DNA of 59,959 bases from Kiritimatiellia bacterium (GCA_017542055.1 JAFXXW010000001.1:1-59959); one strand, 5' to 3'. Counted from the stretch's first letter, positions 500 to 24,370 are shown. Numbers and translations are program-made. Notes: generated by a model not told the origin, from the sequence alone.

Positions 500-705
500 G
501 GGTGTTTGCGTATGTTTTGGACAAACTCCAAGGTTGCCAGGCCGTCGATCGCAACAATATCCAAGGTTGTTTCGCGCCGCTCTGTCAACTCCCGCTCCTT
601 TCATTGGTCATTGGAATTGGCACTGGCAACATTTCCACATTGGCAACATTCTCCCCCAACCCGCGCTTGCCCTCATCCGCGTATTCATTGCGACTTCTCC
701 GTGGT

Positions 706-3700
706 TCAATCTTCGGGCGGGGCGGCGACGGCTTTGATGAATATGCGGCGGAAGGGAACGGTCTTGGAGTTGGAGCGCGCGAAGGAGAACTTCTTGACGT
801 TCTGTGCGCCATCGCGCAACTGGCGGGTGTAGGCGAGGCGCCCGTTGTCGTAAACCTTCACATCCCGGCCTCTGAAGACGACTTTGACGACCTTGTTCGT
901 CTCGCCCTTCGGCCACGGGAGAATGGCGAAACGGTTGTCCTTCTCGTCGGTCTTGTTTGCGACGGCGAGCACGCTGAAGCGCTGGTAGAAGTCCTTGGCG
1001 CTCGAGCCAAACTCAAAATGCATCATTCCCTCGCCCTTCGTCTCGGGTCCGTCCACCGTCAACTCGAATTCGACCGTAATTTCCTCCAGCTTCTCGTCTA
1101 TATCCGCCCAGAGATTCTTTGGAAAGATGCCGGCAAGTTCGCAACCGTCCGGCGCCAGCGCCTTGGTGCCGATGCAGCATCCGGCGAGGTATCTCAAGAA
1201 TCCCCACTGCAAATCCGGCGTGTTGTCCTTCGACACCTCGCCGCGATATATGAGCGGCAGGATGAGTTTCTCGAACGGCTCGTAGTTGCGCGTCTCGTGG
1301 GTATGGTCGCGGCACGATTTGCGCATCGGCTCCCACTGTCCGAAAGCGTGGCGCAGCGCGTGCAGCAAGTCCCTACGATCCGTGTCCGGACGCGACCGGA
1401 CCCAGTCGGCGAGCGCGCGCATCCCCGCATTGCGCCATGTGGTCGTGTTTTTCACGGCCTTGATGTAAGTCAGTTTCTCTTCCTTCGCCTTGGCGCCGTC
1501 GTAGTTACGCCACGCATCGAACATCTCCATGTCGCCCATGCTCCAAGCCGCCGCAAGGAACGTATCGGCGACGAATCGGCGCGCCCCGATGGAAACGCCC
1601 TTGCGCTTGAGATAGCCGCCGTTCATGTAGATGTCGCTGAAGTGGCGTATCACTTCGGCGTTGTTCTCCGCCCATTCCTCGAAATTCCGCTCCTTGCCTC
1701 GATACGTCTCTTCCTTGAAGACGTCCCAATACACCTTGTCGATTGCCCAGGCGGGCATGAGCGTATCAGCGAAGTCGTCGGACAGGAACATCCTGAAGAA
1801 CGCCATCATATCGAGCGTCGAGCCACCCCAGCGCGGACGCATTCCCCACACGAACTGGTCGGCGGCGAGCGCATCGTCCTTGAAAAGCGCCGCCGCGCGC
1901 CGGTACCACTTCAGCGCCTCCGCCCTGTTGCCGTAGTTGGCCTTGAGGCCGACGAATGTCGGGGATGCCAGGTCCGGCCGCAGCGCGTAAGCTTTCTCCG
2001 CCCATTCGAGCGCCTTGGCGCGGTGCTCGCCGTAGCCCTTCCAGCCTTCCTCCGTGACGGTGCTGGAGAAACCGCTGCCGCGCGCATCCCATGCGCGGTC
2101 GATGTGCCAGTAAGCCATCGCCACCGCCTCCAGCCACGGATCGAACGCCGCGCCTTCCGCTTTCAGCTCCTCGAAAACCATTTTGTTGTTGCCGCGCTGA
2201 TGCGCAATCGTCCACCACGCGCAGACGATTTCCTCCGGCTTCCATTCGCCGGAGGCGATGAACTTCTTTTTCAGCGCGACGGAAATCTGCGTCAGCTCAT
2301 TTGCGTTTTTGCCGTCATGTTCGCGCCAGTCGGCGATGAATAAGATGCGCGAGGCAAGCGGCCAGCGCGGGTCGTCCTTCCACTTTCCCCAAGTCTCGCG
2401 GCGCACGGCGGCATTCTCCTCCGCGCCGATCTTTTTCGGGTGTTGCGCCGTATGCTCGATCACCACGAACGGCGTGCGAGCGCCGCGTTCCCACGCCGCC
2501 GTCGCGTCCGCCGCATAATCCTTGCGCAGCGACTTGCGGTTTACGTCTTTCGGCGCGCGGGAAATGGCGTATTCCCTGACTACTGCGGCCATATCCATAT
2601 CCGAGAACGCGGCGCCGAGCATCTCCTGCTCTGGCTTGGCAAGCAGCCGCTCCGCGAACGGCATGAACACCTCCTCCGTCCAGTCCAACGCAGCCCCGGC
2701 ACCCGCAAGCGGCAAAGCGAGCGGCGCGGCGGCTTCTTCGTCCTCTTCCTCATCATTATCTTCGGCGTCATCATCTTCGCCATCCGCCGCCGACTCGAGG
2801 ATTTCCTCGACACTCGCCTCGGCAATCTCCACTGAACGTTCCATGCCGTATGCCACACTTTTGAGTAGTTCGTCCTTCTCTTCCGCGAGTTCCTCCGGCA
2901 CCTCAAGCGCCTTGAGCCGAGACTCGACATCGCGCAAATCCTCCGCCCGCTTCGCGAACAGCGCCTTGATGCGTTCGGCCGTCTCGGCGTCCTTTGGTCT
3001 GCCTATCTTTTCAAGTTCGGCGGCAAACGCCATACTGCTTCGCTGCGACTCTTCGAAAAGCTCCTTGAAATATTTTCCCCTGAGCGGCGCAAGCCGCAAT
3101 TCCTTCTTGAAATTCTCCACCCATTTTTCCGCACCGCCGCGTTCGTAGCCGCCTTGGGACTTGATGCTTTCTTCCCACGCCGACACGATCAGCACCAATG
3201 GATAGCCCCTGACCTCGAACTTCTCCTGCAACTCGCGGTTGCGCCTGCGTTCCTTCGCCGACAACATGCTTGCGTCTTTCGGGAAATCAAGTACGACGCA
3301 CTCGAATTCATTTGTGGCATAGTCGAGAAATGCGCTCTTCGAGAGGACTTCCTTCTCAAGCTTCTTGCAATAAGTGCACCAGTCGCTACCGGTGAAAAGC
3401 AAGAACAAATCGCGCCCGTTCGCTTTCGCCCGCTCCCGCGCCGCATCGTAGTCCACCGTAAAACCCGCCGGCAATTTGCGATTGGCATTCGCCTCCGTCT
3501 CCTGCGCCACAGGAATAGCAACGCTGACCGCCGCAAGGCCATATCCCTGGCCATCTGCCGACGCCACCGCCTTCCAGTTGGCGTCGTCGCGGAAATCGTA
3601 ACCGAGCGCGTTTTTCTTGTAGCCGAGCGTGACGAACCCCGTGTAGTCGCAGACCGCCCGCACACCTTCCGGCGAATCCGTGAACACCGCGCGGACGCAT

Positions 3701-4701
3701 TTCACGTATTCCTTGCCGTCGCCCTTGTCGATGCACTGGAACTGCACGCGCAGCTTCTCTCCCGGCTGGTATTCCTTGTTATAGCCCTTCGCCTCAAGCC
3801 CCTCGCCTCCGTTCACCCACGCGCCGCCCATCATCCCGGAGAACTCGCCATCGGCAAGTTCTTCTATCGTCATGCCGGGGAAAACCAGCGTCGCCTCCCC
3901 TTCCCTCGCCGCAACATACCCGGCGTACGATTCTGTGCGAACTTCTGGCGGCGGCTCTGCCGTTTCTTCTTCCGCCTTTTCGTCCGCTTCCTTCTTCTCA
4001 ACTGGCTTCAGACTTTCCGCTCGCGCCACCGCCTCTTTAGAAAGAAACGCCTTGGCGTAGTCCGGCACTTCGCCGCCAAAGAAAGCGCGAACCTCGTCAT
4101 CGGTCGCCGTCCTGACGAATGTCTCCAGTTCCTCCTGGACTTGCTTGTGCTCCTTGGCAATCGACAGCGCCGACCATTGCGCCGCGCGTTGCGTCAAATC
4201 AATTGTCGCCTCCTCCGGAAACGTGAACGACCCTCGCTTGATGATGCGCCTCGGCGCCTCCCTGTCGCCCGTCGCGAAGAAATACCCCCACATGAAATCG
4301 AGATGCCCCGGTCCAAGCGCCTTGGGATCTTCGCCGACAATTTCGGCCAGCGACTTGCCATCAAGACCGAAGTCGATAGCGCCCTTCAGCCAGCGCGCCT
4401 TCGTCGCCTCTTTTGCCGCCACCCATTCGTCCTTGCGCTCCGGCGATATCTTCACCACGCCAAAATAGAATCCTGACATCGGGCTCACCGCGCTTCGCGA
4501 CTTCCTGACCGACTTCTCGACATACGGTATTTTCGCAATCGCCTCCACCGCGTCCGGCTTGAGGTAGTACGCTTGCAGAAACAAGTTGAACGCCTCCTCT
4601 TCGACGCTTGGTTTCCCGCCGCTCTTGCCGACCGCGACCATCGCCATCGCAACAATCGCAGCAAACATGATTTTCTTTTTCATATGTCTGTCTCCTTTCA
4701 T
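706..4701 (-). CDS. Large secreted multidomain protein: thioredoxin-like domain plus DUF4034-like domain
   Basis: 1331 aa ORF with signal peptide MKKKIMFAAIVAMAMVAVG (alternative start 4683 with AAAGGAG RBS), LLFTGSDWCTYC CxxC thioredoxin motif, acidic linker, and AWDARGSGFSSTVTEEGW motif typical of DUF4034. Confidence 0.75.
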   Translation of the reverse strand: MKGDRHMKKKIMFAAIVAMAMVAVGKSGGKPSVEEEAFNLFLQAYYLKPDAVEAIAKIPYVEKSVRKSRSAVSPMSGFYFGVVKISPERKDEWVAAKEATKARWLKGAIDFGLDGKSLAEIVGEDPKALGPGHLDFMWGYFFATGDREAPRRIIKRGSFTFPEEATIDLTQRAAQWSALSIAKEHKQVQEELETFVRTATDDEVRAFFGGEVPDYAKAFLSKEAVARAESLKPVEKKEADEKAEEETAEPPPEVRTESYAGYVAAREGEATLVFPGMTIEELADGEFSGMMGGAWVNGGEGLEAKGYNKEYQPGEKLRVQFQCIDKGDGKEYVKCVRAVFTDSPEGVRAVCDYTGFVTLGYKKNALGYDFRDDANWKAVASADGQGYGLAAVSVAIPVAQETEANANRKLPAGFTVDYDAARERAKANGRDLFLLFTGSDWCTYCKKLEKEVLSKSAFLDYATNEFECVVLDFPKDASMLSAKERRRNRELQEKFEVRGYPLVLIVSAWEESIKSQGGYERGGAEKWVENFKKELRLAPLRGKYFKELFEESQRSSMAFAAELEKIGRPKDAETAERIKALFAKRAEDLRDVESRLKALEVPEELAEEKDELLKSVAYGMERSVEIAEASVEEILESAADGEDDDAEDNDEEEDEEAAAPLALPLAGAGAALDWTEEVFMPFAERLLAKPEQEMLGAAFSDMDMAAVVREYAISRAPKDVNRKSLRKDYAADATAAWERGARTPFVVIEHTAQHPKKIGAEENAAVRRETWGKWKDDPRWPLASRILFIADWREHDGKNANELTQISVALKKKFIASGEWKPEEIVCAWWTIAHQRGNNKMVFEELKAEGAAFDPWLEAVAMAYWHIDRAWDARGSGFSSTVTEEGWKGYGEHRAKALEWAEKAYALRPDLASPTFVGLKANYGNRAEALKWYRRAAALFKDDALAADQFVWGMRPRWGGSTLDMMAFFRMFLSDDFADTLMPAWAIDKVYWDVFKEETYRGKERNFEEWAENNAEVIRHFSDIYMNGGYLKRKGVSIGARRFVADTFLAAAWSMGDMEMFDAWRNYDGAKAKEEKLTYIKAVKNTTTWRNAGMRALADWVRSRPDTDRRDLLHALRHAFGQWEPMRKSCRDHTHETRNYEPFEKLILPLIYRGEVSKDNTPDLQWGFLRYLAGCCIGTKALAPDGCELAGIFPKNLWADIDEKLEEITVEFELTVDGPETKGEGMMHFEFGSSAKDFYQRFSVLAVANKTDEKDNRFAILPWPKGETNKVVKVVFRGRDVKVYDNGRLAYTRQLRDGAQNVKKFSFARSNSKTVPFRRIFIKAVAAPPED

Positions 4702-4788
4702 TGAAAATTGAGTTTGGTTTTAGTCACGTGAAAACGCATCATCATCCGCGTATTCATTTCGATTCCTCCGATATCATGGCTTGCATCT

Positions 4789-5211
4789 TCAATGACAATC
4801 TATTAAGGTTACGATTAAGCGATAGGCGGCATAGACAGCGCCACCAACAGCAACGCCTATGACAAGTAGCGACCGCGCAATCTCCGCGCAAACGGACAGT
4901 TTGGAAATCGCTTTCCATTGATAACGGTCCCTCCAACTGCTGTTGCCTTCAAGATATTCAAGCAACGCATCTTCCGCCTCGCGTCGCGAAACAAGCCTGT
5001 CGCAGCGATATGCCTTGCCGCCTTTCCCTTCTTGATAGCAAAGTCTGAAATTGTCCGGCGGATTCACAAACGACACATGTATAAAAGCATCCGCATCGTG
5101 CGCTTGCCGCAACAACAAGTTTGTGCCTCGCTTCTTGTCGTCAGACATAAATTCGCGCAATAAGCTCGCCGTTGCATCTTGCTCTAGCGTTCTCGATGTT
5201 TTGACTCTCAT
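4789..5211 (-). CDS. Hypothetical protein with C-terminal TM helix; paralog of the N-domain of 6792..7994
   Basis: 140 aa, RBS GGAGCGGGAGC from the repeat; FRLCYQEG..YRC.R.VS..E..W...WK resembles FDLEYRDG..YHC.R.VS..E..W...WE. Confidence 0.7.
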   Translation of the reverse strand: MRVKTSRTLEQDATASLLREFMSDDKKRGTNLLLRQAHDADAFIHVSFVNPPDNFRLCYQEGKGGKAYRCDRLVSRREAEDALLEYLEGNSSWRDRYQWKAISKLSVCAEIARSLLVIGVAVGGAVYAAYRLIVTLIDCH

Positions 5212-5271
5212 GCTCCCGCTCCTTTCGTCTTGTCCGCGACGGCCCGCATAAACATCCGCGTAGTCATTTCG

Positions 5272-5859
5272 TCAGTTCCTTTCATTGCGCAACTCACCTG
5301 TCAACGCTTTTGTAGTCACTTCTTTGACTGCAATTTCACAGAAGTCACGACTGCCGCATCTAGCAAGCGGGCCAGCATCCCAGTACCGGTGCTCGAACCA
5401 GCCGGGAATCGGCAGAAACCCAGTTGGCAACACCGAAACCAATCCATATCCATTAATGTCAACGCCTATTCCCATGTCACCTTCCGGGAAACCAAGTTCA
5501 ATCGTGAAGTGCTGTGATGTCTTCACATACATCGGCAATATCGTCAATGTTGCGAAGCTGGGAATTCTCGACCAAAGCGGACTGTCGCTCGTTTCAGGCT
5601 CTTGCTTTACCGCAACCTTGACTATTGGAAGCGCGTCGTCACCACTAGATTTTGGCAATCGTCTAATGGCATATAGTGCGACCATTTCATAATAGCCACA
5701 ACTGGAAGGTTCAATCAGCCTATAGTACTCACTTTGCGTATTGCCGGAAACCTTTAGCGACGTTACGCTGTAATTGTATCCGGCATTTACGCACCCTGCC
5801 AAGCACCCCGCCATCGCCGCTCCCGCTACGGCCCGCGCAAACATCATCCGCGTATTCAT
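5272..5859 (-). CDS. Lipoprotein whose signal peptide begins with the type A repeat
   Basis: MNTRMMFARAVAGAAMAGCLAGC with LAGC lipobox; RBS AAAGGAACGAACCC. Confidence 0.75.
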   Translation of the reverse strand: MNTRMMFARAVAGAAMAGCLAGCVNAGYNYSVTSLKVSGNTQSEYYRLIEPSSCGYYEMVALYAIRRLPKSSGDDALPIVKVAVKQEPETSDSPLWSRIPSFATLTILPMYVKTSQHFTIELGFPEGDMGIGVDINGYGLVSVLPTGFLPIPGWFEHRYWDAGPLARCGSRDFCEIAVKEVTTKALTGELRNERN

Positions 5860-5877
5860 GGGTTCGTTCCTTTAGTT

Positions 5878-6654
5878 TTACCTCTCCTCTTTCGCGCGAG
5901 GGATACAGCAACCTTCAACAGCGCTGATAGTCAGGACGCGTTCTTCGTTGTCCCACGTCCATCTGCAACCCAAACTGGAGCAGAGCAAATAGATTAGCGA
6001 TTCTAGCCGTATATCGCGCGCCTCAAAAACTGGTGCAGGGGTCTGCGAAATATCGCCGCCTTCCATCGCATTCTTGTATTCGCGTATGATGCGCAATCTT
6101 CCTTTTCCATCGTGTCCCTCCGGACAAGAGCAATTCATGCATTGCTCGAGATAGTCAATTGCATCGTCAAGCGTTGCGGGCGGTCGTATCTTGAATAAGG
6201 GGACAACTATCTCATGCAGTAAATCTTTCTCCTGCGCAAAGCAACGAGAATCATAGCAAGCGACCATTTTCCCCTCAATTGGTGGGCGAAATTTATCTTT
6301 GTCCCGAATCAGCGAGCTCAAATGCATCGCATACATTCGCTGAAGCCTTGCGAACGCTCGCAAATCCTCGTCAAGCAACGAATACTTGTCGTCCAGCTTT
6401 TTGCGCAACCACTTAATCTGCTCATCCATCGGCATAGTCGTGCCACCAGGATAAATAGAATCCTCCAAACAAGCTATTTCTGCCGCATTTGTCAGTACGA
6501 CATGAAACAAAGCCTCTGCCGAGGAAATCCGAAACTTGCCGCATGTGTTATTATAACCCGCAAGGTCGTCTTTAATTAAATCGTTCTCGGGTAACCAGCC
6601 AAACGCCGTCGCGACCATTGCCGCGAGCCCCACCGCCATCATCATTTTCTTCAT
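5878..6654 (-). CDS. Secreted hypothetical protein, possible STN-like C-terminal domain
   Basis: Signal peptide MKKMMMAVGLAAMVATAFG; C-terminal FEARDIRLESLIYLLCSSLGCRW resembles secretin/TonB N-terminal domains. Confidence 0.65.
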   Translation of the reverse strand: MKKMMMAVGLAAMVATAFGWLPENDLIKDDLAGYNNTCGKFRISSAEALFHVVLTNAAEIACLEDSIYPGGTTMPMDEQIKWLRKKLDDKYSLLDEDLRAFARLQRMYAMHLSSLIRDKDKFRPPIEGKMVACYDSRCFAQEKDLLHEIVVPLFKIRPPATLDDAIDYLEQCMNCSCPEGHDGKGRLRIIREYKNAMEGGDISQTPAPVFEARDIRLESLIYLLCSSLGCRWTWDNEERVLTISAVEGCCIPRAKEER

Positions 6655-6791
6655 CGCCGTTTTCCTTTCATTGACAATTGGTTATTGGCATTGGATATTT
6701 GCACATTTTCACATTTCCCTCTCCCCCTACGCAGAGCTGCGGAGGACAAGTTGATTCGTGCAAATGGTTTCATGGGTTGCTCCTTTCGGTT

Positions 6792-7994
6792 TCATTTCAG
6801 TGGGATGCGGTAGGATGATGAGACGACTAGGCCGCTCTTGAACACCACCGTGGCGCGGAAATAGTATCTGAAGGCAGTATGACAGTCTTTTGCGATTCGC
6901 GGCATTTCCAGCGTCACGCTGCCGGACGCGATCTCCAGCGAATGCGTAAACTTCTTTTCATCGTTAATATCTCCCGGTTGAGCGCCAACAATCCCGTGTC
7001 TTGCCTCGCAAGCCGCACATGCCGCCGTCGCAAGTGCAACGCTCTTTACCTCTTCCGCGTCGCCTTTGAAGCGGTATTCAAATGTAGCGCGTTCGCCCTC
7101 TTTCAGCAACCCACCCACAAGCCGCACCTCGTAGCTTGGCCGCAGATGTTTCCATAGAAGGCGGAAGAAATACACTGTCATCGCAACGCCAATGAGCGGG
7201 AAGACCACGCCTATAACAAGAATCGCATCGAATCCCTTTTCGGAATAGGCACGCACGGCATCTACAAACTTCGGAGCAAGGCCATAAAACGCGCCAGCAT
7301 CCCAGCCTATGCACCAAATCGCCATGAAGACAAGGCCATTGGGCAACATACGCCGCAGTCTTATTCCATCCATCGGTATCGACCGCTCATGAGCCTCCCG
7401 CGTCTTGCCGCGTGTCTTGAGCCATTTCACAAGCTGCATCACAGGGCCACCGATAAAGACGCAAGCGAAGAGCGCAAAGAATCCCGCATATATCCAATCG
7501 CCCTTGTCCGCATTCGGACGCAACGCCGTCTTAATCGCATCGTAAAGATTCAAGGAGATGAGTGGCACACCAATAGCGATGGCGATTGCCGCAGCCACAT
7601 AGCACAAAACCTTTTCGGCTGGCGGCATCCCGGCCGTCGGGGAAAATGTCCAACCGCTCGTACCGCCCCGCTCCAACTCCCAATCAAAGCAACTGCGCCA
7701 CTCGCCGCGCCCGGCCAGTTCATCGAGAAAGACGCGCTCCACCTCGTCCGTGCTAACGCGGCGCGAGCAGTGGTAGAGATAGCCGTTCTTGCCATCGCGG
7801 TATTCGAGGTCGAAAAGTCCGTCGCTTTTGCCGCCCACTTCGTCATAGTCGCAGGCGATCTGCACGAAGCGTGAGTCGTCCGCGTCGTCCGACATGATCA
7901 TGAACTCGCCGCGCCGCGCGTCATTCCGCACCAGCTCGCGCACAAGCTCTTCGGTGGCGACCCGCTCGCCCATCTTCTCCGCCTCAATCTTCAT
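6792..7994 (-). CDS. Multi-pass membrane hypothetical protein
   Basis: 400 aa with about 4 hydrophobic segments; repeat-derived RBS. Confidence 0.75.
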   Translation of the reverse strand: MKIEAEKMGERVATEELVRELVRNDARRGEFMIMSDDADDSRFVQIACDYDEVGGKSDGLFDLEYRDGKNGYLYHCSRRVSTDEVERVFLDELAGRGEWRSCFDWELERGGTSGWTFSPTAGMPPAEKVLCYVAAAIAIAIGVPLISLNLYDAIKTALRPNADKGDWIYAGFFALFACVFIGGPVMQLVKWLKTRGKTREAHERSIPMDGIRLRRMLPNGLVFMAIWCIGWDAGAFYGLAPKFVDAVRAYSEKGFDAILVIGVVFPLIGVAMTVYFFRLLWKHLRPSYEVRLVGGLLKEGERATFEYRFKGDAEEVKSVALATAACAACEARHGIVGAQPGDINDEKKFTHSLEIASGSVTLEMPRIAKDCHTAFRYYFRATVVFKSGLVVSSSYRIPLK

Positions 7995-8066
7995 GCTCCC
8001 GCTCTCCTTTCTTAATCCTGTCTAAAAGCTTTCCCGCGACGGCCCGCGCAAACATCCTCCGCGTAT

Positions 8067-9404: not shown

Positions 9405-9433
9405 TTTGCGCCTTTCCCATGGTTACAAGGCAT

Positions 9434-9488
9434 ATTATAGCATATTTTGGGGCGCACCGCAATAGCCAAGTGCCGAAAATCGGCACTT
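9434..9488 (-). promoter_or_regulatory. sigma70 promoter of the AAA ATPase with an adjacent palindrome
   Basis: TTGCGG-N17-TATAAT on the minus strand; perfect inverted repeat AAGTGCCGA-aaa-TCGGCACTT at 9468-9488. Confidence 0.6.
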
Positions 9489-15241: not shown

Positions 15242-15321
15242 TGAAAATTGAGTTTGGTTTTAGTCACGTGAAAACGCATCATCATCCGCGTATTCATGAG
15301 TTCGTTCCTTTCGGTTCTATT

Positions 15322-16581: not shown

Positions 16582-16668
16582 GCTCCCGCTCCTTTCGACT
16601 TGTCCGCGACGACCCGCACAAACAGTTTTGTTTTCATGCTACGACATCCTTTCTAGGTTTCCACCGAT

Positions 16669-16710
16669 ATTTTACCATTTCCCGCGCCGGAGGTGGAGTC
16701 CGGCAACGGA
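16669..16710 (-). promoter_or_regulatory. Putative internal array promoter (extended -10 TGGTAAAAT)
   Basis: Minus strand AAATGGTAAAAT followed by an RBS and the mini-ORF MKTKLFVR...; the -35 is unclear. Confidence 0.4.
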
Positions 16711-17149
16711 GTTTGCAGCCGATATGGCCGCAGAAAACGTCCATGCAGATTGCAGAGGCGTTTTTGAAGTCCACCGGCCAAATTCTACATTTTTCCAAGA
16801 TGAAATCACAGCCAATCATACACTTTTCCAAAACCGCCTGCAATAATTTTTGGCGAAAGTCAGCACGAACAACTCCACTCATTTGGCTTTTTTGCCGATG
16901 AACATCATCCTGAACATGGCTCTTTTCCTCACCAACTCTCGCTCCTTTCATTGGAAATTGGTATTGGTAATGGCAACATTCTTGACAGCCTTAGCGCAGA
17001 GCGCGGCGGCGGTTCCACATCTTGACCTCCAACTTGTCCGCCGTAGCCTTGGCGAAGGCGGAAGCCTCGGCGAAGGAGGCTGGCAACATTCTCCCCCGAC
17101 TCGCGCAAACATCATCCGCGTATTCATGAGTTCGTTCCTTTCGATTGGG

Positions 17150-17734
17150 TCATTCCTCGGACGAGCGCAAGAGCATTGCGCAACGCAAAAAGTCAAACAA
17201 CTCTTCCGCGCCCTTCTGCGTTCCGCATTGGCAGATTCGCTCCGACCTGCGGCTTGCCTTGTTTCTCACCGACACCACCCATTCGTCGCACGACGACTCG
17301 CGCGTCCCGCGCGCTCCCATGGGCCTTGGCGCATCGATTGCACCGCTCGTAATGTGGACGAGTTGCGGATTGTCGATTTCTCCAAGATTCCAACGCCACT
17401 TCCTCAATGTCATACCAAAGAGAGTGGACTTGCTGGAAAGGTTCGCGCCGTCGGCAACCCATGTGTCGATGCCGAAGAACGCATAGAGGACAATCACACC
17501 AAAGAGAAGCCCAGCAGGGACAAATGCCACGCACAAATAAAATAGCACACGGTCGTCCCCTGTGAAAAGCAGACGAAGCGACTGTCCCTGCTCGACCAGT
17601 TCGCTGCACAGCATATACATGATCGCACATCCGAAGGAGAAAAGACCAATCGGTATCATCGCAATCGCCACCCTGACAATGCATGGTATTGTCGCCAAAT
17701 TGTCGTACTGCCGTTGAACAAGTTGCATCTTCAT
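17150..17734 (-). CDS. Membrane hypothetical protein (start MKMQLVQ)
   Basis: Start placed after the repeat RBS; two TM segments. Confidence 0.7.
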   Translation of the reverse strand: MKMQLVQRQYDNLATIPCIVRVAIAMIPIGLFSFGCAIMYMLCSELVEQGQSLRLLFTGDDRVLFYLCVAFVPAGLLFGVIVLYAFFGIDTWVADGANLSSKSTLFGMTLRKWRWNLGEIDNPQLVHITSGAIDAPRPMGARGTRESSCDEWVVSVRNKASRRSERICQCGTQKGAEELFDFLRCAMLLRSSEE

Positions 17735-17789
17735 GCTCCCGCTCCTTGCGTTTTGTCCGCGCCGATCCGCGCAAACATCATCAGCGTAT

Positions 17790-18446
17790 TCATTTCGATT
17801 CCTCGCCATCCGTAATCTTGTCCGCCGCCTTGGTTATCTTGTAGCATTCATACTCGCCGGTGTCGAGATCCTTTTGACAGAGGAACACCGAATCGGGGAA
17901 GCGCGGCGAAACAACTGCCCGCCAACGCCTCCCTGGAACATGCTCCATCTCCCATACGCAAGTAAACGACTGGTCGAAGATGTGTATAACCGATTCGTTG
18001 CGATAGGTCGCATTCGGCTTCACCACCAACAGCCGCTCGTTCTCCCCGCGCCCGAATGCCGCCGCGCATTGCAGGATGATGCTATGCCCCGCATCGTGGC
18101 GGCAGAGGATTTGCGAGCGGAATACGGCGTCCGCAATCTGGATAGGCGAGCCCTTGCGCCCCAACTTCGCGACCGCCACGCAAACCATGTTCGTGCCAAA
18201 GCGAATCGGCGTGGACTCGTACCAAACCGCCGCATTCTCCGCCGCGCGATCTCGATCTTTGTTGATGTTCCACACCCTGTCATCCGTGCCGCCACTAACC
18301 TTTGCAAGCCTCGCAATCTCGGCAGTCGTCGCGCCGTCGCACGGCACAAACGCAAACTCCTCAATGTTGGGTCTGCTCGCACAACCTGCCAAGCCGAGCA
18401 TCGCCGCTCCCGCGACGGCCCGCGCAATCATCATCCGCGTATTCAT
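17790..18446 (-). CDS. Lipoprotein whose signal peptide begins with the type A repeat
   Basis: MNTRMMIARAVAGAAMLGLAGC with lipobox; ends EESK*. Confidence 0.75.
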   Translation of the reverse strand: MNTRMMIARAVAGAAMLGLAGCASRPNIEEFAFVPCDGATTAEIARLAKVSGGTDDRVWNINKDRDRAAENAAVWYESTPIRFGTNMVCVAVAKLGRKGSPIQIADAVFRSQILCRHDAGHSIILQCAAAFGRGENERLLVVKPNATYRNESVIHIFDQSFTCVWEMEHVPGRRWRAVVSPRFPDSVFLCQKDLDTGEYECYKITKAADKITDGEESK

Positions 18447-18509
18447 TTCATTAGTTCCTTAAGCTGAGTGGTATGGAGAAATAGAACGAATAGCGCAAAT
18501 TCAACGACA

Positions 18510-19055
18510 TCAATCTTCACGACATTCATGAATTGCAGCACATTTTATTAACGCCTCGTCACGACTCAAAATCTTAGCAGGACCATTCCATTGAATACGC
18601 TTATATTCCCGAACACTACTTATATACAATGGGATAGACATATCTATGGACCATAAAACTTGATCGCCGACTGAGACTCCTTTTATTTGCATCTGAGGCC
18701 GATTAAACGCTAGACTGATTGACGATCCTGGACCAAGACTGCAGCGCTCAGAATAGGGCTCGTACATTATGTCTTCATCATAAAAAACAGTTTCGAGCAA
18801 AATCCCAGTGGTGGCCATCTTATACAAACCATATTGAAACACAATACCAATATAAAAGTCGTCAAAGGCAACCGCCTTGTCGGTACAATTCGTTAATTGA
18901 ACCAAGAATATGCTTCCCTCGTCGTCAGATGCGATTTCAACCTGCGATGGGAGAACAACTGATGCATTTTGCATCTTGCAACCAGCGCAAGAAACCAGGA
19001 ACGCCAACGCCGCCAACAGCAGCCATTTCATTTCCTTTTGCCATTTCAGCTTCAT
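18510..19055 (-). CDS. AT-rich lipoprotein (start MKLKWQKEMKW)
   Basis: First 20 aa identical to 10053..10532, followed by an unrelated low-GC body; CAGC lipobox. Confidence 0.7.
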   Translation of the reverse strand: MKLKWQKEMKWLLLAALAFLVSCAGCKMQNASVVLPSQVEIASDDEGSIFLVQLTNCTDKAVAFDDFYIGIVFQYGLYKMATTGILLETVFYDEDIMYEPYSERCSLGPGSSISLAFNRPQMQIKGVSVGDQVLWSIDMSIPLYISSVREYKRIQWNGPAKILSRDEALIKCAAIHECRED

Positions 19056-19202
19056 GCTCCCGCTCCTTTCATTGGTAATTGGATTTGGACTTGGCAACAT
19101 TTCCATATTGGCAACATTTCCCTCTCCCCCTACGCAGAGCGGCGGAGGACAAGGCGGAGGACAAGTTGATTCGTGCAAAGGGGTTCATGGGTTGCTCCTT
19201 TA

Positions 19203-19553
19203 TTATGTCCACTTGAAGTAACATAGCGCACCCATGCCGAGTAAAAGCCAGAGACAGGCCATTATGGCAAAGATAATCCGTATCGCGCGATTTCGCCATT
19301 TCACCCACAAAACGCCTGCGCCAAACAACACAAGTGGGGAAATGACATCCCAGAGCCATCCAAAATCAGAGGGCACGCAAGGCAGAATATGCCGCGCCCA
19401 AGGCCCTGTCACGGCGGCAAGATAGCACATCATACGGCTTGTTGCCGCCGTCATCCCATTGTGTTCTGGATGCATTGTCGCCGTCCAAAGGGAAAGCACA
19501 AGGCAAAAAGCAACAGGAACATACGACCGATGCAGTCTAACAGGAGTACGCAT
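19203..19553 (-). CDS. Small membrane protein
   Basis: 116 aa, hydrophobic; GGAGGGGG RBS. Confidence 0.6.
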   Translation of the reverse strand: MRTPVRLHRSYVPVAFCLVLSLWTATMHPEHNGMTAATSRMMCYLAAVTGPWARHILPCVPSDFGWLWDVISPLVLFGAGVLWVKWRNRAIRIIFAIMACLWLLLGMGALCYFKWT

Positions 19554-19682
19554 GATTAGATCCCCTCCATTGGTTATTGGATATTGGATATTTGCACATT
19601 TTCACATTTCCCTCTCCCCCTACGCAGAGCGGCGGAGGAAAAGTTGATTCGTGCAAAGTGTTTCATGGGTTGCTCATTTCGG

Positions 19683-20015
19683 CTATTTCGTTTCGATTCG
19701 TGCGCCGCAATGGACGCAAACGACCGGTTCGCTTTTGGCAATGGCGCGATAGCGTGCGCGGTTCTCCTTGTCAAAGGAATCGCGGTGCGGTATTGCAACC
19801 CGCTGTCCGCATTTCGGGCAAAGCAGATTGTCATAGGCCGACCATTCAAAAACTGCCGCCACCGCGCCAACCACGATAAGCAATGTCACGGCAATTGCGG
19901 CACCAAGTGTACCGCCTATAAAAATATTGCAGCAATGAAATGCGACCATGGCAAGCACGATGAAGACAATACCCAATCTGCAATATAGCCTGAACTTCCT
20001 GAAATCCGATTTCAT
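19683..20015 (-). CDS. Small membrane zinc-ribbon protein (start MKSDFRK)
   Basis: AAAGGAG RBS; two TM segments, CPKCG...CVHCG; ends IETK*. Confidence 0.75.
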   Translation of the reverse strand: MKSDFRKFRLYCRLGIVFIVLAMVAFHCCNIFIGGTLGAAIAVTLLIVVGAVAAVFEWSAYDNLLCPKCGQRVAIPHRDSFDKENRARYRAIAKSEPVVCVHCGARIETK

Positions 20016-20028: not shown

Positions 20029-21201
20029 TCACTTCGTCTCCCGCAAGGCCGTGCAACGCAATTTCTTTGAGCGGCGGCCAAGTATCGCGCCGAGGGCGAG
20101 GCATGCCGCAATCGGACCCACACCACAAGAAAGAAAATCAAAGGCTAATGCGTTCAGCATAGGGAACGCGAGCAGAAACAGCCCGACGATGCCTGAATAC
20201 ACACTCATGAGTCCGATTCGATCCCTTATGCGCAAATCCGGCCACGCAAACGAAGTGTACGTAAGAAATCCAATTGCAATGGGAACAATGCCGCACAAAT
20301 ACCCCGTCGCAAGCCCAAGTGTCTCAAAAAACGCTTGCGCAAGGGACGAAACCGCAACAAACGCGAAAAAGAGACCAATGAATCTTGCATGTCCAATGCG
20401 CCGCTCGACAGCGGCAAGCGGAATGAAAAGCAGAAATGCGCAAAACAACGCCATTCTGCCCGATGTCTGCACAAACGGGAAAGTAAGCGCGTTCAGCGGC
20501 GCGGACAGGTCGAAGCCGTATTTCTCGGCCATGCTCGCGCTGATGTACCAGAAGTCGCGATATCTGGAGGGAAACCGTATTGCGTAACTTGCTGCATGCA
20601 AATCATGAAATCGATAGTATATGCAGACCTGCGCAACTGGCAAGGCAAGTGTCATCAGAATCGTGAAAATCGGCGACACTGGTTTAACCGCCCGCCATAG
20701 TGTAGGCACTCCGATAACGAGACGCGCTATGTCGCGCAAGACGTCCCCAATGTCGAAATCGGCAGGCGAGACTTCCTCCGGCAGGGATTCCAGCAGCGCG
20801 TCGGCGTAGCGTTCGCGCGCCTCCGGCGAAGCCTGCGCAACAAGTTCCCGCATGGACCTCTCGCCCGACTTCGGCAGGGGCGGCGCAAGCGTCTCGTATT
20901 CACCCTTGTCGCACCAAACGGAAAGACAGCGCCCGCAAACATCTATCTCCAGCTTGTTCTTCCCGTCGCCGACTTTCAAAAGGCTCATGCTACCTCCGCA
21001 ACCTGGGCATGTGCATCCGGCGTGTTCAGCGGCACGGGCCGAGCGCGTCAACGCGGCTATGCTTCTCGCATCCAGCGATTCGCGGAGCACGGGAAGCGTA
21101 ACGGCGACACCGCCACAGGATGCGCAACGAAAGCAAACCTTGCCGGTCGGTGTCGAGCTGCGCACGAGCTCGCGTCCGCATCTGGGGCAAATCCCCATCA
21201 T
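20029..21201 (-). CDS. zf-TFIIB double zinc-finger plus rhomboid-like membrane protein
   Basis: Start MMGICPRCG overlaps the upstream TGA; CPGCG...LEIDVCGRCLSVWCDKGE; VERRIGHARFIGLF rhomboid-like segment with a degenerate GxSG site. Confidence 0.7.
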   Translation of the reverse strand: MMGICPRCGRELVRSSTPTGKVCFRCASCGGVAVTLPVLRESLDARSIAALTRSARAAEHAGCTCPGCGGSMSLLKVGDGKNKLEIDVCGRCLSVWCDKGEYETLAPPLPKSGERSMRELVAQASPEARERYADALLESLPEEVSPADFDIGDVLRDIARLVIGVPTLWRAVKPVSPIFTILMTLALPVAQVCIYYRFHDLHAASYAIRFPSRYRDFWYISASMAEKYGFDLSAPLNALTFPFVQTSGRMALFCAFLLFIPLAAVERRIGHARFIGLFFAFVAVSSLAQAFFETLGLATGYLCGIVPIAIGFLTYTSFAWPDLRIRDRIGLMSVYSGIVGLFLLAFPMLNALAFDFLSCGVGPIAACLALGAILGRRSKKLRCTALRETK

Positions 21202-21812
21202 TTGGCTGATTTCCTTTCTCTGCACAAGTATAGCCCCGAGGAGCAGATCGCGCCGAGGGTGTCGCAGAGGATGTCCTTCTGCGCGTCCCATACGTCGCCC
21301 TGCGAACCGAGGAACGCCGCCCCCGCCTCTCCTCCGTCGACAACCGCGTACCACCACTCGACGAGCTCCCATATCCCGGCCATTGCGACAGTAGACATGA
21401 CGGCAAAGAACGCAGCAAAGCCGGCGGACTTCGCCCAGCCCTTGCGGAAGAAGAGCTCGGCGAGCGGGAACGCAAACCATCCGACCGCAAAGTGCGCGAT
21501 GCGGTCGTAGGGATTGCGCACGAGCCCAAGCGGCTTCATCAGCCATTCCATCGGGACATGCTCGAACGTGTAGTGCGCGCCGACGAGCTGAAGGACCGTC
21601 CATACGAAGAAGCAGAGGTAGGCTGGCGTGGAGAAGCGGAACTTCCTGCGCGTCAGGAGAAGAATAGCCCACAGCCCGACCGCCCACACCATCTCGACGC
21701 ACCACACCGTCCTGTCGGCGGGGTAGATGCCCAGCACGACCGCCACGCACACAAGCGCGGCGACCATCCACAAATCCCGATAACTGTACAATATTGAATT
21801 GCCCATTTGCAT
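21198..21812 (-). CDS. DUF2238 (YjdF) membrane protein
   Basis: Motifs GAHYTF, RNPYDRIAHF, WELVEW, FLGSQGDVWDAQKD. Confidence 0.9.
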   Translation of the reverse strand: MQMGNSILYSYRDLWMVAALVCVAVVLGIYPADRTVWCVEMVWAVGLWAILLLTRRKFRFSTPAYLCFFVWTVLQLVGAHYTFEHVPMEWLMKPLGLVRNPYDRIAHFAVGWFAFPLAELFFRKGWAKSAGFAAFFAVMSTVAMAGIWELVEWWYAVVDGGEAGAAFLGSQGDVWDAQKDILCDTLGAICSSGLYLCRERKSAK

Positions 21813-21819
21813 TACAAGT

Positions 21820-22332
21820 TCATTTCTGCTCTACCCAAATCAACTTGCCCGTATCGTAGCCACGACGTTTGGCTTCGGATAGAAGTTCGGACTTCGCGGT
21901 TTCAGACAGTCCAGACGTGCGCGAGAGAATCCAGAGATAGTCCGCACTGCCGCTACCGACGAGTGCGCATGTGTAGTCCTTGTCGATCAGCATCACGCGG
22001 TAGTCGGCGTAGAACGGGCCGAAGAACGAGACGCGCAGGAGTCCGGGCGTGTCTGTCGTCTTGCCGTTCCCGATCGCCGTCTTCGGCTTGCTGTCCTTGA
22101 TGCCGGAGTTCACGACCTTGATCGTACCGTCCGCGTTCAGCGTATAGTTGGCCTTCGCCTGCTCCACGCCGCGCTCGAAGCTGTGGTCGAACCGTGCGAT
22201 CTCGTACCACTCGCCGAGATAGCGGTTCAGGTCAAGCGCCGCCACGGGCGTATTGTCAACTTTCAAAGTGCTCGCGCACCCCGCCGCTAGGGCGAGGGAT
22301 GTGACGAGGATCATTCGTGCAAATGGTTTCAT
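21820..22332 (-). CDS. blc: Bacterial lipocalin (Blc-like) lipoprotein
   Basis: LDLNRYLGEWYEIAR, LRVSFFGPFYADY, YLWILSR; signal peptide MKPFARMILVTSLALAAGC begins with the type B repeat. Confidence 0.88.
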   Translation of the reverse strand: MKPFARMILVTSLALAAGCASTLKVDNTPVAALDLNRYLGEWYEIARFDHSFERGVEQAKANYTLNADGTIKVVNSGIKDSKPKTAIGNGKTTDTPGLLRVSFFGPFYADYRVMLIDKDYTCALVGSGSADYLWILSRTSGLSETAKSELLSEAKRRGYDTGKLIWVEQK

Positions 22333-22518
22333 GGGTTGCTCCTTTCTTGTTGAATGTGGAAATGTGCAAATATCCAACAGCCAGCAGCCAATATCCAATT
22401 TGCCCCGCCATCATTGAATAATGGATACTGGATATTGGATACTGGATATTTGCACATTTTCACATTTCCCTCTCCTCTCGCGCGAGGGATGAGACGAGGA
22501 TCATTCGTGCAAATGGTT

Positions 22519-24270
22519 TCATGGATTGTTTCCTTTCTTGATTTCGCTATCCTTTAGCCACGACTTCATCTCGCGCGGGAAGTTGGTTTCGAGGATGGTG
22601 AAGCCGTGTTCGACTAGCCAGCCCCAGCCGTCCTCCGGCGAACCTGTGAGCGACGCGCGGTCGTCGTGTCCGGCCGTGTGGTTGTGCCAAGTTGCCGCCA
22701 CGAATGCACGAGAGCCGCTCTCAAGAATCCTCGGCAGCAACGCGAACGTGCACGTATCGGTAGAGGCGAAGCGGAACTGGAACGCGAAAGGCTTGAAGTT
22801 GGCAAGCCACTCGTCGACATACGTGTCGAGGTTCGCGATCTTGTCCTCGATTACCGGACAGTAAACCACCTTTTCAAGGTCGTCGCCAAACACCGCCCTC
22901 GCCTTTTCGTAGGGCCAATCGAGCACAAACAACGTCTCTTCCAGCGTTCCGCACTTCTTCGCGAGTTCGAGAATCTGCGGGACGAGCGCGCCACCGTCCT
23001 GTCCGGCCTTGTCGAGATAGAGCCGCACCCTGCCCTTGGCGGAGAGCATGTATTCCTCAAGCGTCGGAATCTTCTCCGCCGTCGTCTGGCCGAGCGCATC
23101 GCGCAGATTGAGCCGCTTTATCTCCTCCAGCGTCATGTCGGAGACATACCCCTGTCCGTTAGTCACCCGCGCGACATGCGGATCGTGCAGAATCACCAGC
23201 TGGCCGTCCTTCGTGCGCCGAACGTCCGTCTCGACGATATCGACCCCGTAGCGGATGGCGTTCTCAAGCGCGGCAAGCGAATTTTCCGGCGCAAGCTTCC
23301 AGTCCGCCCGATGGCTAGCCACCAGCACCTTATTTGCTGCCGGGCCAAGCGAGTGGCGACCGTTTCGCGTCAGATACAGTATGAGCTCGGCGCCGCAATC
23401 GGTCTGTATCAGCGTCGCGCCCTCACGGAGGCACCACCCCCAATTGGTGGCAGGGTCGAGCAAGGCGCGGCAATCGGAATGTGCCGCCGAGAGGTCATCC
23501 CACATCGCATTCAACCAAAGCCGGGGCGCATTCGGTGCCTTGCGCAGTTCGCCCAGCACGGACGCCACCCTGTCTGCATCGTCAAAGCATATCTCGTAAA
23601 CGGAAGCCTTGCGCGGTTCCTCTGCAAGCCATTTCGGAAATATCCCGGCGGCATGTGCATGGTGCGACCAGCAAAACTGCACGACCGGCATGAAGATGAG
23701 TTCCCCGCTTTCGGCAAGCGGCCAGTATTCTCCTAGAAGCGCTTTCGCCGCTTCCGGCGACTCGGTTGATTTGATGATCACTTCTTTTGTCGCGCCAGCC
23801 GCCGTTACAACAGCAAGAATCTCCTGCGGATGTTCTGCAAACCTGTCTATGTTGACGAGGATTCTGCCCTTCGTCAATTCGAGCGCGTCCTCAAGCGTAA
23901 GGATGCCTTCGTCTGTCGTCTTGCCGTCCTTCACGAACCGAAGCGACTGCAACTCCTCCAGCGTCATGTCTTCGACCGCGCCATGGCCGTTGGTGACTCG
24001 ATCTACATCCGCATCATGCATCAGCACAAACCGCCCGTCCTTCGTTCGCCGCGCATCAATCTCGACAATGTCCGCGCCGAGCGCGATAGCCGAAAGGATG
24101 GCCGAGCGGCTGTTTTCCGGGAAGTTGCGCCAGTCGCCGCGATGCATCGCCACGAACACATACTCGCGGTCGCCGGACAGGAACTTCGCCCGAAGCGCCT
24201 CCGTTCGCGTCGCACCAAACGACACGGCGGCAAGTGCCGCCGCCATTGCAACAAGTAAAAGTCTTTTCAA
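22519..24270 (-). CDS. Secreted glycerophosphodiester phosphodiesterase with two tandem GDPD domains
   Basis: Two copies of HRGD/HRAD..PENS...GADIVEID/GVDIVETD.RRTKDG...HD; signal peptide. Confidence 0.9.
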   Translation of the reverse strand: MKRLLLVAMAAALAAVSFGATRTEALRAKFLSGDREYVFVAMHRGDWRNFPENSRSAILSAIALGADIVEIDARRTKDGRFVLMHDADVDRVTNGHGAVEDMTLEELQSLRFVKDGKTTDEGILTLEDALELTKGRILVNIDRFAEHPQEILAVVTAAGATKEVIIKSTESPEAAKALLGEYWPLAESGELIFMPVVQFCWSHHAHAAGIFPKWLAEEPRKASVYEICFDDADRVASVLGELRKAPNAPRLWLNAMWDDLSAAHSDCRALLDPATNWGWCLREGATLIQTDCGAELILYLTRNGRHSLGPAANKVLVASHRADWKLAPENSLAALENAIRYGVDIVETDVRRTKDGQLVILHDPHVARVTNGQGYVSDMTLEEIKRLNLRDALGQTTAEKIPTLEEYMLSAKGRVRLYLDKAGQDGGALVPQILELAKKCGTLEETLFVLDWPYEKARAVFGDDLEKVVYCPVIEDKIANLDTYVDEWLANFKPFAFQFRFASTDTCTFALLPRILESGSRAFVAATWHNHTAGHDDRASLTGSPEDGWGWLVEHGFTILETNFPREMKSWLKDSEIKKGNNP

Positions 24271-24297
24271 TGCCGCAATCCTTTCGTTATAGTATAT

Positions 24298-24326
24298 ATT
24301 ATATCATATTTCCACCCGAAAAGCAA
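24298..24326 (-). promoter_or_regulatory. sigma70 promoter at the head of the cassette array
   Basis: TTGCTT-N17-TATAAT with TG extended -10. Confidence 0.75.
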
Positions 24327-24370
24327 GGAGAAAGCGAAAGCAACCCCCCGCCCCTTCTTTACCCTTTCGG

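Follow-up and report, generated by a model that had tools for sequence, protein, structure and literature searches.

Integrons are the textbook bacterial means of stockpiling and shuffling promoterless genes, and in class 1 integrons a short open reading frame (ORF), ORF-11, helps to translate the downstream cassettes. The pdif/Xer modules carry 28-bp XerC/XerD sites in alternating orientation. The vlp/vsa families of Mycoplasma and the vsp/vlp families of Borrelia are lipoprotein families with conserved 5′ ends and divergent mature parts; they consist of paralogous surface antigens, each expressed from a promoter of its own or all from one expression site, and in some a dedicated recombinase brings about inversion. 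Clusters of attC sites without an integrase, termed CALINs, were reportedly delineated by Cury et al. in 2016. In gut Bacteroidales, rAID arrays combine co-oriented short genes, conserved intergenic motifs, a lower GC content and a tyrosine recombinase, and identical arrays or cassettes occur in co-resident gut species (PMC12247911). Here, we analyzed a window of 59,959 nucleotides from a Kiritimatiellia bacterium (GCA_017542055.1, JAFXXW010000001.1:1-59959), which is the whole contig C27 of the source genome (G000; 1.35 Mb in 31 contigs, GC about 0.61, marker completeness 88.7%). In this window, 26 co-oriented genes form an array (585-24333) joined by a modular junction repeat. All array features given below lie on the minus strand, and coordinates refer to the window unless another contig is named.

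The closest analogues of the array are integrons and the Bacteroidales rAID arrays, and it is a member of neither. With integrons it shares a long, co-oriented and mostly promoterless series of cassettes behind a promoter, border repeats, a cargo with toxin-antitoxin genes, small unknown proteins and a lipocalin, an uneven GC content, and a content and order that vary between relatives. It differs from them in having no IntI, no attC and no recombinase on the array contigs, and in the repeat itself, which lies at the 5′ end of each gene and is coding, whereas attC sites lie at cassette 3′ ends. CALINs are likewise cassette arrays with no integrase nearby, but they are defined by attC. The rAID arrays share with this one the co-oriented short genes, the conserved border motifs, a GC content below that of the genome and cassettes common to co-resident species. 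However, rAID arrays are defined by an adjacent XerD-like tyrosine recombinase, which was found neither here nor on a 108-kb array contig of the relative G003, and by orphan type VI secretion system immunity genes, none of which were among the 25 commonest of the 55 Pfam families matched here (most of the 150 cargo representatives matched no family). They also belong to another phylum, and the junction here is a gene start rather than a non-coding motif. Unlike pdif/Xer sites, the A and B units of the junction described below are all direct repeats on one strand. The Mycoplasma and Borrelia families resemble the array in a conserved ribosome site and signal-peptide 5′ end, and in apparent recombination within that 5′ end, but the cargo here is unrelated, mostly non-lipoprotein, operon-like and exchanged between species, with few promoters between genes. 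Among the titles and abstracts listed by a literature search on Kiritimatiellae gene cassettes, integrons and related topics, none deals with such an array. Should a dedicated enzyme or site come to light, there is a real chance that the array forms a new class.

A one-strand array joined by a coding repeat

The one-strand array joined by a junction repeat proved to be real. ORF calling in the window placed every credible gene between 24270 and 706 on the minus strand (n = 26), in agreement with the roughly 25 unrelated, co-oriented genes that an earlier note, made from the sequence alone, had described. Direct-repeat analysis of the window recovered families of 14-17 copies with one-gene spacing, and an A or B unit stands at 21 of the 26 gene boundaries. 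The array has a mean GC of 0.54, against 0.62 in the rest of the window, and individual cassettes range from 0.43 to 0.61. Two further observations of the earlier note also held, namely that cargo composition varies, with AT-rich genes at 14374 (GC 0.44) and 18510 (0.43), and that paralogues are scattered within the array. Beyond the array, the contig runs a further 35 kb into ordinary core DNA.

Two junction types were distinguished. On the coding strand, type A reads GAAAGGAACGAACYC-ATGAATACGCGGATGATGTTTGCGCGGGCCGTCGCGG and comprises a Shine-Dalgarno site, the ATG and 12 codons (MNTRMMFARAVAG). This junction core, about -15 to +37 around the ATG, is the 5′ end of a lipoprotein gene; the conserved core spans -14 to +37 in 178 unique copies from the window, related metagenome-assembled genomes (MAGs) and metagenomes. 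Counted in the window as the 18-mer ATGAATACGCGGATGATG with up to 4 mismatches, type A gave 21 matches, 18 of them on the minus strand between 671 and 18446; the remaining three, all on the plus strand (737, 6074 and 28493), carry 4 mismatches each and lie elsewhere in the window. An extra, truncated copy at 16604-16622 retains only the second half, the ATG part being missing. Type B (ATGAAACCATTTGCACGAAT, reading MKPFAR...), another lipoprotein-gene 5′ end of this sort, matched five times, in every case on the minus strand; its ATGs are at 6773, 19188, 19666, 22332 and 22522. The A and B units are all direct repeats at cassette borders.

Across the whole source genome, the array contig holds all 14 type A matches with up to 2 mismatches, all 12 matches to the second half of type A and all 8 matches to a second ribosome-site module (RBS2); five of the seven type B matches with up to 3 mismatches lie in the array. 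The earlier note had held that copies occur only at gene boundaries and only in this region. Confinement to the array stands for the A and RBS2 units; the exceptions are one doubtful A copy, counted among the 18, that lies inside a gene (12193-12210, 4 mismatches), and two weaker B-like matches on contig C3. The A, B and RBS2 units are not distributed among housekeeping genes in this genome. Genome-wide scatter like that of repetitive extragenic palindromic (REP) sequences, bacterial interspersed mosaic elements (BIMEs) or MITEs (miniature inverted-repeat transposable elements) was absent for A, its second half and RBS2, and was seen only for an M sub-module of the junctions and for the promoter motif.

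After the A core, junctions continue through one of four adaptor classes: ACAAGTCGAAAGGAGCGGGAGCATGAAG, which reads DKSKGAGA*, the TGA of its stop lying within ATGA; several ACAGGATTN units in a row, with RBS2 behind them; a generic M module ending in TGA-AAGGAG; and an adaptor common to the junctions at 4757 and 15297. The 3′ edge of type A varies between junction classes (+18, +28 or +37). The M sub-module (AATGTTGCCAAT...CCAAT) is not array-specific, occurring in ordinary intergenic regions of at least six other contigs of the source genome. The modular junction was thus rightly described as array-specific in its A and RBS2 parts, and wrongly so in this module and in the promoter, both of which are found genome-wide. 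Copies of the M repeat (AATGTG/AATGTTGCCAAT plus CCAAT units) lie in the window at 595-672, 6677-6730, 11710-11776, 19063-19129 and 22420-22475, and elsewhere in the genome on contigs C3, C12, C13, C19, C24 and C28, often at contig ends; the repeat has been recruited into some junctions. The start of C13 and the end of C28 carry the same sequence after an M-type repeat, and these two ends probably join there.

In relatives, many A cores are followed by T, an imperfect palindrome of about 90 nt with three ACAGGATTN units per arm. The 127 arms found make up 18 complete copies and 8 wide pairs, and 75 of them stand alone. Copies of T lie at 1148-1227, 2183-2263 and 6807-6881 of L035, 1511-1585 of L029, 1124-1198 of L039, 1522-1596 of L111 and 4778-5221 of L015. 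With its flanks, T folds at about -47 to -67 kcal/mol. In two loci, L015 and L035, T arms flank a nuclease-family gene (GxxExxY, TIGR04256), an arrangement that resembles ORF-in-hairpin intervening sequences. Of T, the window holds left arms only, at 13761 and at 14185, and a single unit at the 8070 junction.

The reading frame opened by the junction has two fates. In the window, the type A frame at 5859 and 18446 continues via an AAM(A/L)G..AGC lipobox into lipoproteins of 195 and 218 aa, and at 10056 into a 120-aa membrane protein; the other type A frames stop at a length of 19-60 codons, and the real gene then has a ribosome site and an ATG of its own. Type B acts as the genuine signal peptide of the Blc-type lipocalin at 22332, and its copies at four other borders are stubs. 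As the earlier note had it, the repeat provides the ribosome-binding site and start codon, often the upstream stop codon (the TGA inside ATGAAT in 5 of the 18 window A copies) and sometimes the start of a signal peptide (three A copies and one B copy). Among 198 unique A junctions, gathered from the window, from related MAGs and from contigs of metagenomes, the frame ended within 35 codons in 112 and after 36-79 in 30, ran for at least 80 aa in 43, nearly all of them h-region- or lipobox-like (e.g., ...AGAAMLCLAGC), and ran off the contig in 13. The mini-ORF stop was TGA in 104 of 136 mini-ORF junctions, and in 71 of the 136 the next long ORF began 4 nt before the end of that stop (ATGA). This geometry, from gene to mini-ORF to next gene, suggests translational coupling.

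Within the 12-codon core, changed codons were mostly non-synonymous, in stubs (156 non-synonymous versus 42 synonymous) and in real signal peptides (118 versus 35) alike. Core conservation is at the DNA level and is not explained by the peptide. Regulation of the CsrA type through the many GGA motifs was also considered and was rejected, as no CsrA gene was found in the source genome, a weak negative since that genome is incomplete.

The motif ATATGATATAATA, a very uniform extended -10 promoter type, occurs 205 times (up to 1 mismatch) in the 1.35 Mb of the source genome and 11 times on the array contig, all 11 on the minus strand. Three of these lie in or at the array, at 24297, 9433 and 470, of which only 24297 and 9433 are inside it; 20 array genes stand behind the first promoter and 6 behind the second. 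The single promoter that the earlier note placed at 24298-24326 is indeed present at the array head (24293-24333, motif at 24297; similar stretches occur on at least 10 other contigs), but it is not single, given the further motifs at 9433 and 470. Generic sigma-70 and terminator scans stayed at chance level and missed the organism's own promoter type.

The cargo in the window comprises a glycerophosphodiester phosphodiesterase (GDPD), a lipocalin, a DUF2238 protein, several zinc-ribbon membrane proteins, lipoproteins without a family, a 1331-aa secreted protein and an ATPase. Two unrelated genes share an identical 75-nt start (18510-19055 and 10053-10532), and a 134-nt stretch is 100% identical between 4624-4757 and 15164-15297. 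Across all arrays, 376 cargo ORFs fell into 186 clusters. The Pfam scan took in 150 representatives and matched 55 families, most representatives having no match; counts included AAA_14 (6), DUF4143 (5), HipA_C (4), Fic (3), AbiEi (2) and AbiEii (1), with further matches to PDDEXK_3, 23S-rRNA-IVS protein, reverse transcriptase, Sel1, SOD and MGMT. PADLOC added PDC-S04, AbiEi and SoFic. Such cargo, with toxin-antitoxin genes, candidate phage-defense genes, lipoproteins and many unknowns, is of the kind seen in chromosomal integrons and defense islands. For the N-terminal domain of a 400-aa cassette protein, the best ESM Atlas score was 0.88, to unnamed clusters, and uninformative. Inside the array of another MAG, at L024 107-1531 (minus strand), lies a group II intron-type reverse transcriptase (RVT_1, YADD motif).

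Cassettes shared between species

The host belongs to the Kiritimatiellae of the rumen or gut. When GTDB genomes were scanned for the A pattern, 26 stretches were returned, nearly all in ruminant MAGs named Kiritimatiellae/Kiritimatiellia or “Verrucomicrobia”, and a few contigs in bins named Victivallales, Thermoguttaceae, Eggerthellaceae and Ca. Spyradenecus. The A core on L021, a 55-kb contig of a Thermoguttaceae bin, and on L030, a 3-kb contig of an Eggerthellaceae bin, could reflect mis-binning or wider transfer. A junction 28-mer (up to 2 mismatches, often 0) was present in 24 of 301 genomes of the order, the source genome included, and in 6 of 53 genera; by rank, it was found in 17 of the 109 genomes from the genus, in 5 of the 93 others scored within the family, in 1 of 33 genomes from a further family and in none from the remaining families, all of these counts being lower bounds because MAGs are incomplete. 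The A pattern also occurred on 71 metagenome contigs, many of them 1-3 kb long. Carriage by phages or plasmids was rejected, since no viral contig held the A pattern and no plasmid matched window 9600-12600. Arrays of the same build were found in G003 (about 23-60 kb of the 108-kb contig, a complete 37-kb array with both flanks), G014 and G010, and the same architecture had been assembled independently across several MAG projects and hosts, in these three MAGs and in G183 and G188.

Three other species of the genus share individual cassettes with the window at 88-99% nucleotide identity, against 65-85% in flanking core DNA. In G014 (positions on L013), the shared blocks correspond to window 18460-17757 (12415-13118, 98.3%), 9693-8042 (13078-14729, 98.6%), 17127-16843 (14701-14985, 96.5%) and 12517-11767 (16344-17094, 96.7%). 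A fifth block, identical at 94.0%, holds the gene of a DUF2238 membrane protein (21198-21812, without an A or B junction on either side), which matches 19402-19971. In G014, the first three of these blocks directly adjoin one another; in the window, they stand 8 kb apart and follow a different sequence. Blocks shared with G010 are 92.3, 96.2 and 88.9% identical, and their arrangement also differs from that of the window. Gene order is thus not conserved between these relatives. The shared blocks open 4-22 nt before one A ATG and close 29-37 nt after the next; since block edges fall within A repeats, it is within the repeat that the neighbors change.

In these genomes, core DNA is much less similar to the window than are the cassettes, which have therefore moved between species recently. 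In coding pieces of window 27000-46999, identity to the same genomes was 65-85%; the exception was a set of pieces of about 75-165 nt within 43125-43297 that are 81-97% identical (93-97% for the 165-nt pieces). The neighboring DinG-type helicase shows 66-72% protein identity to relatives. Junction modules have been swapped as well: one and the same lipocalin starts with a B unit in the window and with an A unit on metagenome contig L085, and homology begins at the lipobox. The flanks of the G003 and G014 arrays map to contigs C17, C13, C21, C14 and C2 of the source genome and not to C27; the arrays do not all occupy one chromosomal site. A search of the source genome with these flanks yielded no clean empty site that could be defined.

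Public sequencing runs also hold this DNA. Parts of a 10-kb array stretch occur in 20 runs from 11 studies, 15 runs holding at least half of its words. In four public runs, Logan contigs cover single cassettes and stop at junctions; array parts without cover in some Logan runs are not evidence of absence.

Mode of exchange and rival explanations

The earlier note saw neither attC nor IntI, and the searches confirmed this. In 24.4 kb of array DNA, attC-type core pairs numbered 2, compared with a mean of 3.96 in 50 shuffles; 14 junction folds had z-scores between -1.5 and +1.5, with no stable fold; the A and B cores showed neither dyad symmetry nor a stable fold; and Rfam gave no match to the junctions at E values up to 1. 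The integron-integrase model (TIGR02249) exceeded its cut-off in none of the five array-bearing genomes. On this evidence, identity of the junctions with attC, and of the array with an integron, was rejected. No tyrosine, serine or Y1 recombinase was found on the array contigs of G000, G014 and G010. The 108-kb array contig of G003 holds no tyrosine or serine recombinase, and its only candidate, a Y1-like (HUH) gene, lies about 11 kb outside the array. All PF00589 matches in G000, G003, G014 and G010 are on non-array contigs; G000 has two tyrosine recombinases elsewhere, one Xer-type-like (C21) and one phage-type integrase-like (C25), and no serine or Y1 recombinase. ComEC and DprA are both present in G000, which counts as weak support because control genomes mostly have both. 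The ComEC gene is on C14, and that of DprA (DNA-processing protein A) lies in the window at 31029-31649 (minus strand), 7 kb off the array.

We think it probable that the locus is a horizontally exchanged cassette array of rumen Kiritimatiellae, whose junction serves both as a translation-coupling module and as portable homology for recombination. What was observed is the anatomy of the junctions, their confinement to the array, the sharing of cassettes across species in differing order, the ends of shared blocks within repeats, the swaps of signal-peptide modules and the lack of attC, IntI and a linked recombinase. These observations support the proposal of the earlier note that genes are captured, shuffled or deleted by recombination at the repeats, and each of the three conditions that the note had named for its refutation was decided in its favor; from sequence comparison, we infer the act of recombination itself, its RecA type rather than a site-specific one, and translational coupling. 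Where a junction is fused in frame, it would give the cassette protein a Sec/lipoprotein signal peptide. Where it is followed by an adaptor (DKSKGAGA*, a T arm or the M module), it would form a mini-ORF of 19-60 codons with a stop on or just before the ribosome site and start of the next gene (ATGA), and ribosomes could be passed from cassette to cassette along a promoter-poor transcript. The junctions would also put near-identical DNA, about 50-130 nt of it, between all pairs of cassettes. Homologous recombination there could delete, duplicate or reorder cassettes, and foreign cassettes from co-resident species, flanked by the same modules, could integrate in the same way. Homologous recombination is favored because the 3′ edge of A varies, the repeats are direct and non-palindromic, and no recombinase is linked to them.

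Several points weigh against this interpretation. All evidence for recombination comes from comparison of short-read MAGs and of metagenome contigs, and in such assemblies chimeric joins can arise at repeats of 50-130 nt. Logan contigs do contain joints between non-adjacent junctions (n = 89, 15 of them among the matches listed), which are a hint only, since these contigs were assembled out of short words. The case for translational coupling is one of geometry. Some exchanges involve no A or B unit: the DUF2238 gene is replaced by other DNA in G010, with breakpoints inside the lipocalin coding sequence and at the ribosome site of the next gene. Since the source genome is 88.7% complete in 31 contigs, a trans-acting recombinase could be unassembled. 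Moreover, the 28-mer is identical across six genera, which is stricter than homology-driven exchange needs and would fit a protein-binding site.

The last two points would suit a dedicated site-specific recombinase, encoded elsewhere and acting on the A/B core or the T palindrome, which would make the array an integron- or rAID-like platform with a new kind of site. We consider this possible but unlikely. The extreme conservation of A core DNA, often without a mismatch over six genera and not accounted for by the peptide, speaks for it, as do the incompleteness of the MAGs, the direct orientation of all repeats at cassette borders, and the T palindrome that follows many A cores in relatives and whose arms flank the GxxExxY gene in two loci; rAID arrays pair a similar layout with a tyrosine recombinase (PMC12247911). 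However, none of the four array contigs examined carries a tyrosine or serine recombinase, including the 108-kb contig that has both flanks and the sole Y1 gene outside its array, and the integron-integrase model exceeded its cut-off in none of the five genomes. The 3′ edge of the A unit is not fixed, its core and that of B are neither symmetric nor stably folded, and the T sites in the window are halves only. With incomplete MAGs, an over-conserved core and a T palindrome in relatives, a trans-acting enzyme has a limited but appreciable chance of existing. To the same modest degree, the array may represent a new class of gene-cassette platform, with a coding gene start (about 52 nt: ribosome site, ATG and signal-peptide stub) in place of an attC hairpin as its recombination site and with a dedicated enzyme to service it; that enzyme might be encoded in trans or be linked to the T palindrome and its GxxExxY passenger.

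It is highly improbable that the locus is an ordinary paralogous family of secreted lipoproteins, with 5′ ends kept alike by gene conversion, after the manner of variable surface lipoproteins, and no mobility of cassettes. A and B units are indeed true lipoprotein signal-peptide starts in 43 of the 185 closed junctions, and the identical 75-nt and 134-nt 5′ stretches between gene pairs in the array would fit. Yet 112 of these 185 junctions are dead-end stubs ahead of cytoplasmic or membrane proteins, and the 376 ORFs in 186 clusters are unrelated and mostly not lipoproteins, among them ATPases, HipA, Fic, AbiE and DNA-repair enzymes. As the cassettes are also far closer between species than core genes and stand in another order, we regard a lipoprotein family as largely refuted. 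Even less credence attaches to an artifact of assembly or binning, in which the contig would be a multi-strain chimera joined at the short repeat. Repeats do break short-read assemblies, and the halting of Logan contigs at junctions, the many metagenome matches of 1-3 kb and the A matches in bins named Eggerthellaceae or Thermoguttaceae are what such an artifact might leave. Against this stand the independent assembly of the same architecture in G003 (37 kb within a 108-kb contig), G014, G010, G183 and G188, the recurrence of the 10-kb stretch in public runs, and the 35 kb of core DNA on the window contig itself. Chimerism could change the order of cassettes; it could not create the repeats or the cassettes.

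The rAID arrays showed that gut bacteria have at least one further platform besides integrons, and the array described here appears to reach the same outcome, a long store of accessory genes on a single strand, shuffled and common to several species, in another phylum, without attC, IntI or a linked recombinase. Its connector is itself part of a gene: the ribosome site, the start codon and a stub of the signal peptide. Provided that this connector works as proposed, it would explain both the translation of foreign genes in a promoter-poor array and the swapping of cassettes by plain homologous recombination. If the platform is truly new, defense, toxin-antitoxin and secreted-protein cassettes would be moved between species and genera of rumen Kiritimatiellae together with a built-in translational coupler. 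A junction 37-mer provides a sequence tag for finding such arrays in rumen metagenomes, where assemblies usually lose them. Because a tet(W)-type gene lies directly behind the last junction, the locus also bears on the travel of accessory genes in livestock gut communities.

Features along the array

The first gene (22519-24270) encodes a two-module phosphodiesterase (GDPD plus DUF4996, twice). Its module 1 has a core-like DNA identity of 66-69% to relatives. For module 2 together with the B junction, the figure is 88%, measured against a G014 gene that has one module and a signal peptide and likewise precedes a B junction. It may be by way of this first gene that the array joined the chromosome. 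The type B junction behind it (22482-22522) is a stub (MKPFARMILVSSLAREEREM*) followed by a generic M2 module. In the Blc-type lipocalin lipoprotein (21820-22332), the first 20 nt are the type B unit used as a real signal peptide (MKPFARMILVTSLALAAGC). Past the DUF2238 gene lie a zinc-ribbon membrane protein (20029-21201; 96% DNA identity to L015 of G010), a small zinc-ribbon membrane protein cassette (19683-20015), a type B stub with an M2 module (19647-19666), a membrane protein cassette without a family (19203-19553) and a type B stub with M and RBS2 modules (19050-19188).

The lipoprotein cassette at 18510-19055 (GC 0.43) has its first 75 nt in common with the gene at 10053-10532. The type A junction at 18410-18460 serves as the real lipoprotein signal peptide of the 218-aa lipoprotein (17790-18446), which falls in the first G014 block. 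A type A stub with RBS2 (17729-17793) forms a 20-aa mini-ORF that is overlapped by the upstream stop and the downstream start (ATGA). It is followed by a membrane protein cassette without a family (17150-17734); a type A stub with an M-like module (16948-17142; a 59-aa ORF), lying in the G014 block of 96.5% identity; a 105-aa ORF of doubtful coding status (16634-16951); the truncated type A unit, second half only, with RBS2 (16576-16622); and a 419-aa lipoprotein cassette without a family (15322-16581). The type A stub at 15238-15312 keeps the first 18 nt and then has a different adaptor, and 134 nt at this place are identical to 4624-4757. The 98-aa ORF beyond it (14945-15241) is an N-terminal fragment paralogous to the 1331-aa protein, a truncated copy of its start.

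Further along are a membrane protein cassette (14374-14874; GC 0.44), a type A stub with a T left arm and RBS2 (14153-14265) whose 31-aa mini-ORF has a stop that overlaps the next ATG, a small zinc-ribbon membrane protein (13823-14158; GC 0.43), and a type A stub with a T left arm and an RBS2-like module (13729-13826). A 409-aa zinc-ribbon membrane protein (12511-13740) and a type A stub with RBS2 (12431-12517) precede a 205-aa cassette (11819-12436) in the G014 block of 96.7% identity. Behind it stand a type A stub reaching to +28 with an M module (11615-11812), a 181-aa membrane protein cassette (11073-11618), a type A stub with RBS2 and ATGA overlaps at both ends (11012-11076), a 136-aa zinc-ribbon protein cassette (10607-11017), another type A stub with RBS2 (10527-10606), and a 159-aa cassette (10053-10532) whose first 25 codons are those common to the gene at 18510-19055. 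The 120-aa membrane protein opening with a type A unit occupies 9694-10056.

A type A stub with a 28-aa mini-ORF (9603-9693) marks the start of the second block shared with G014. Within that block, the internal promoter motif (9427-9464, at 9433) precedes the gene of the AAA_14/DUF4143 ATPase (8067-9404; 98.6% DNA identity), a cassette that thus has its own promoter and that matches the candidate phage-defense family PDC-S01 (E 2e-124). Next are a type A stub with one T unit and RBS2 (7984-8070), the 400-aa membrane protein (6792-7994; 89% DNA identity to G010 L015 9383-8144), a type B stub with an M2 module (6651-6790), a 258-aa secreted protein cassette (5878-6654), the 195-aa lipoprotein with a type A unit as its real signal peptide (5272-5874), and a type A stub with RBS2 (5206-5267). 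The N-terminal domain of the 140-aa cassette at 4789-5211 is 30% identical to the G010 (L015) homologue of the 400-aa protein. A type A stub consisting of the first 18 nt and an adaptor (4698-4775) leads to the 1331-aa secreted protein, which has a thioredoxin-like (DsbH-like) domain (706-4701).

The last junction (585-705), a type A stub with an M module and an RBS2-like module, has no cassette gene behind it. Outside the array (1-501, minus strand), a tet(W)-type ribosomal-protection gene (ATG at about 103) begins behind the promoter motif at 470 and is cut off by the end of the contig; positions 1-124 of the window match tet(W) in a Subdoligranulum plasmid record at 99.2% identity.

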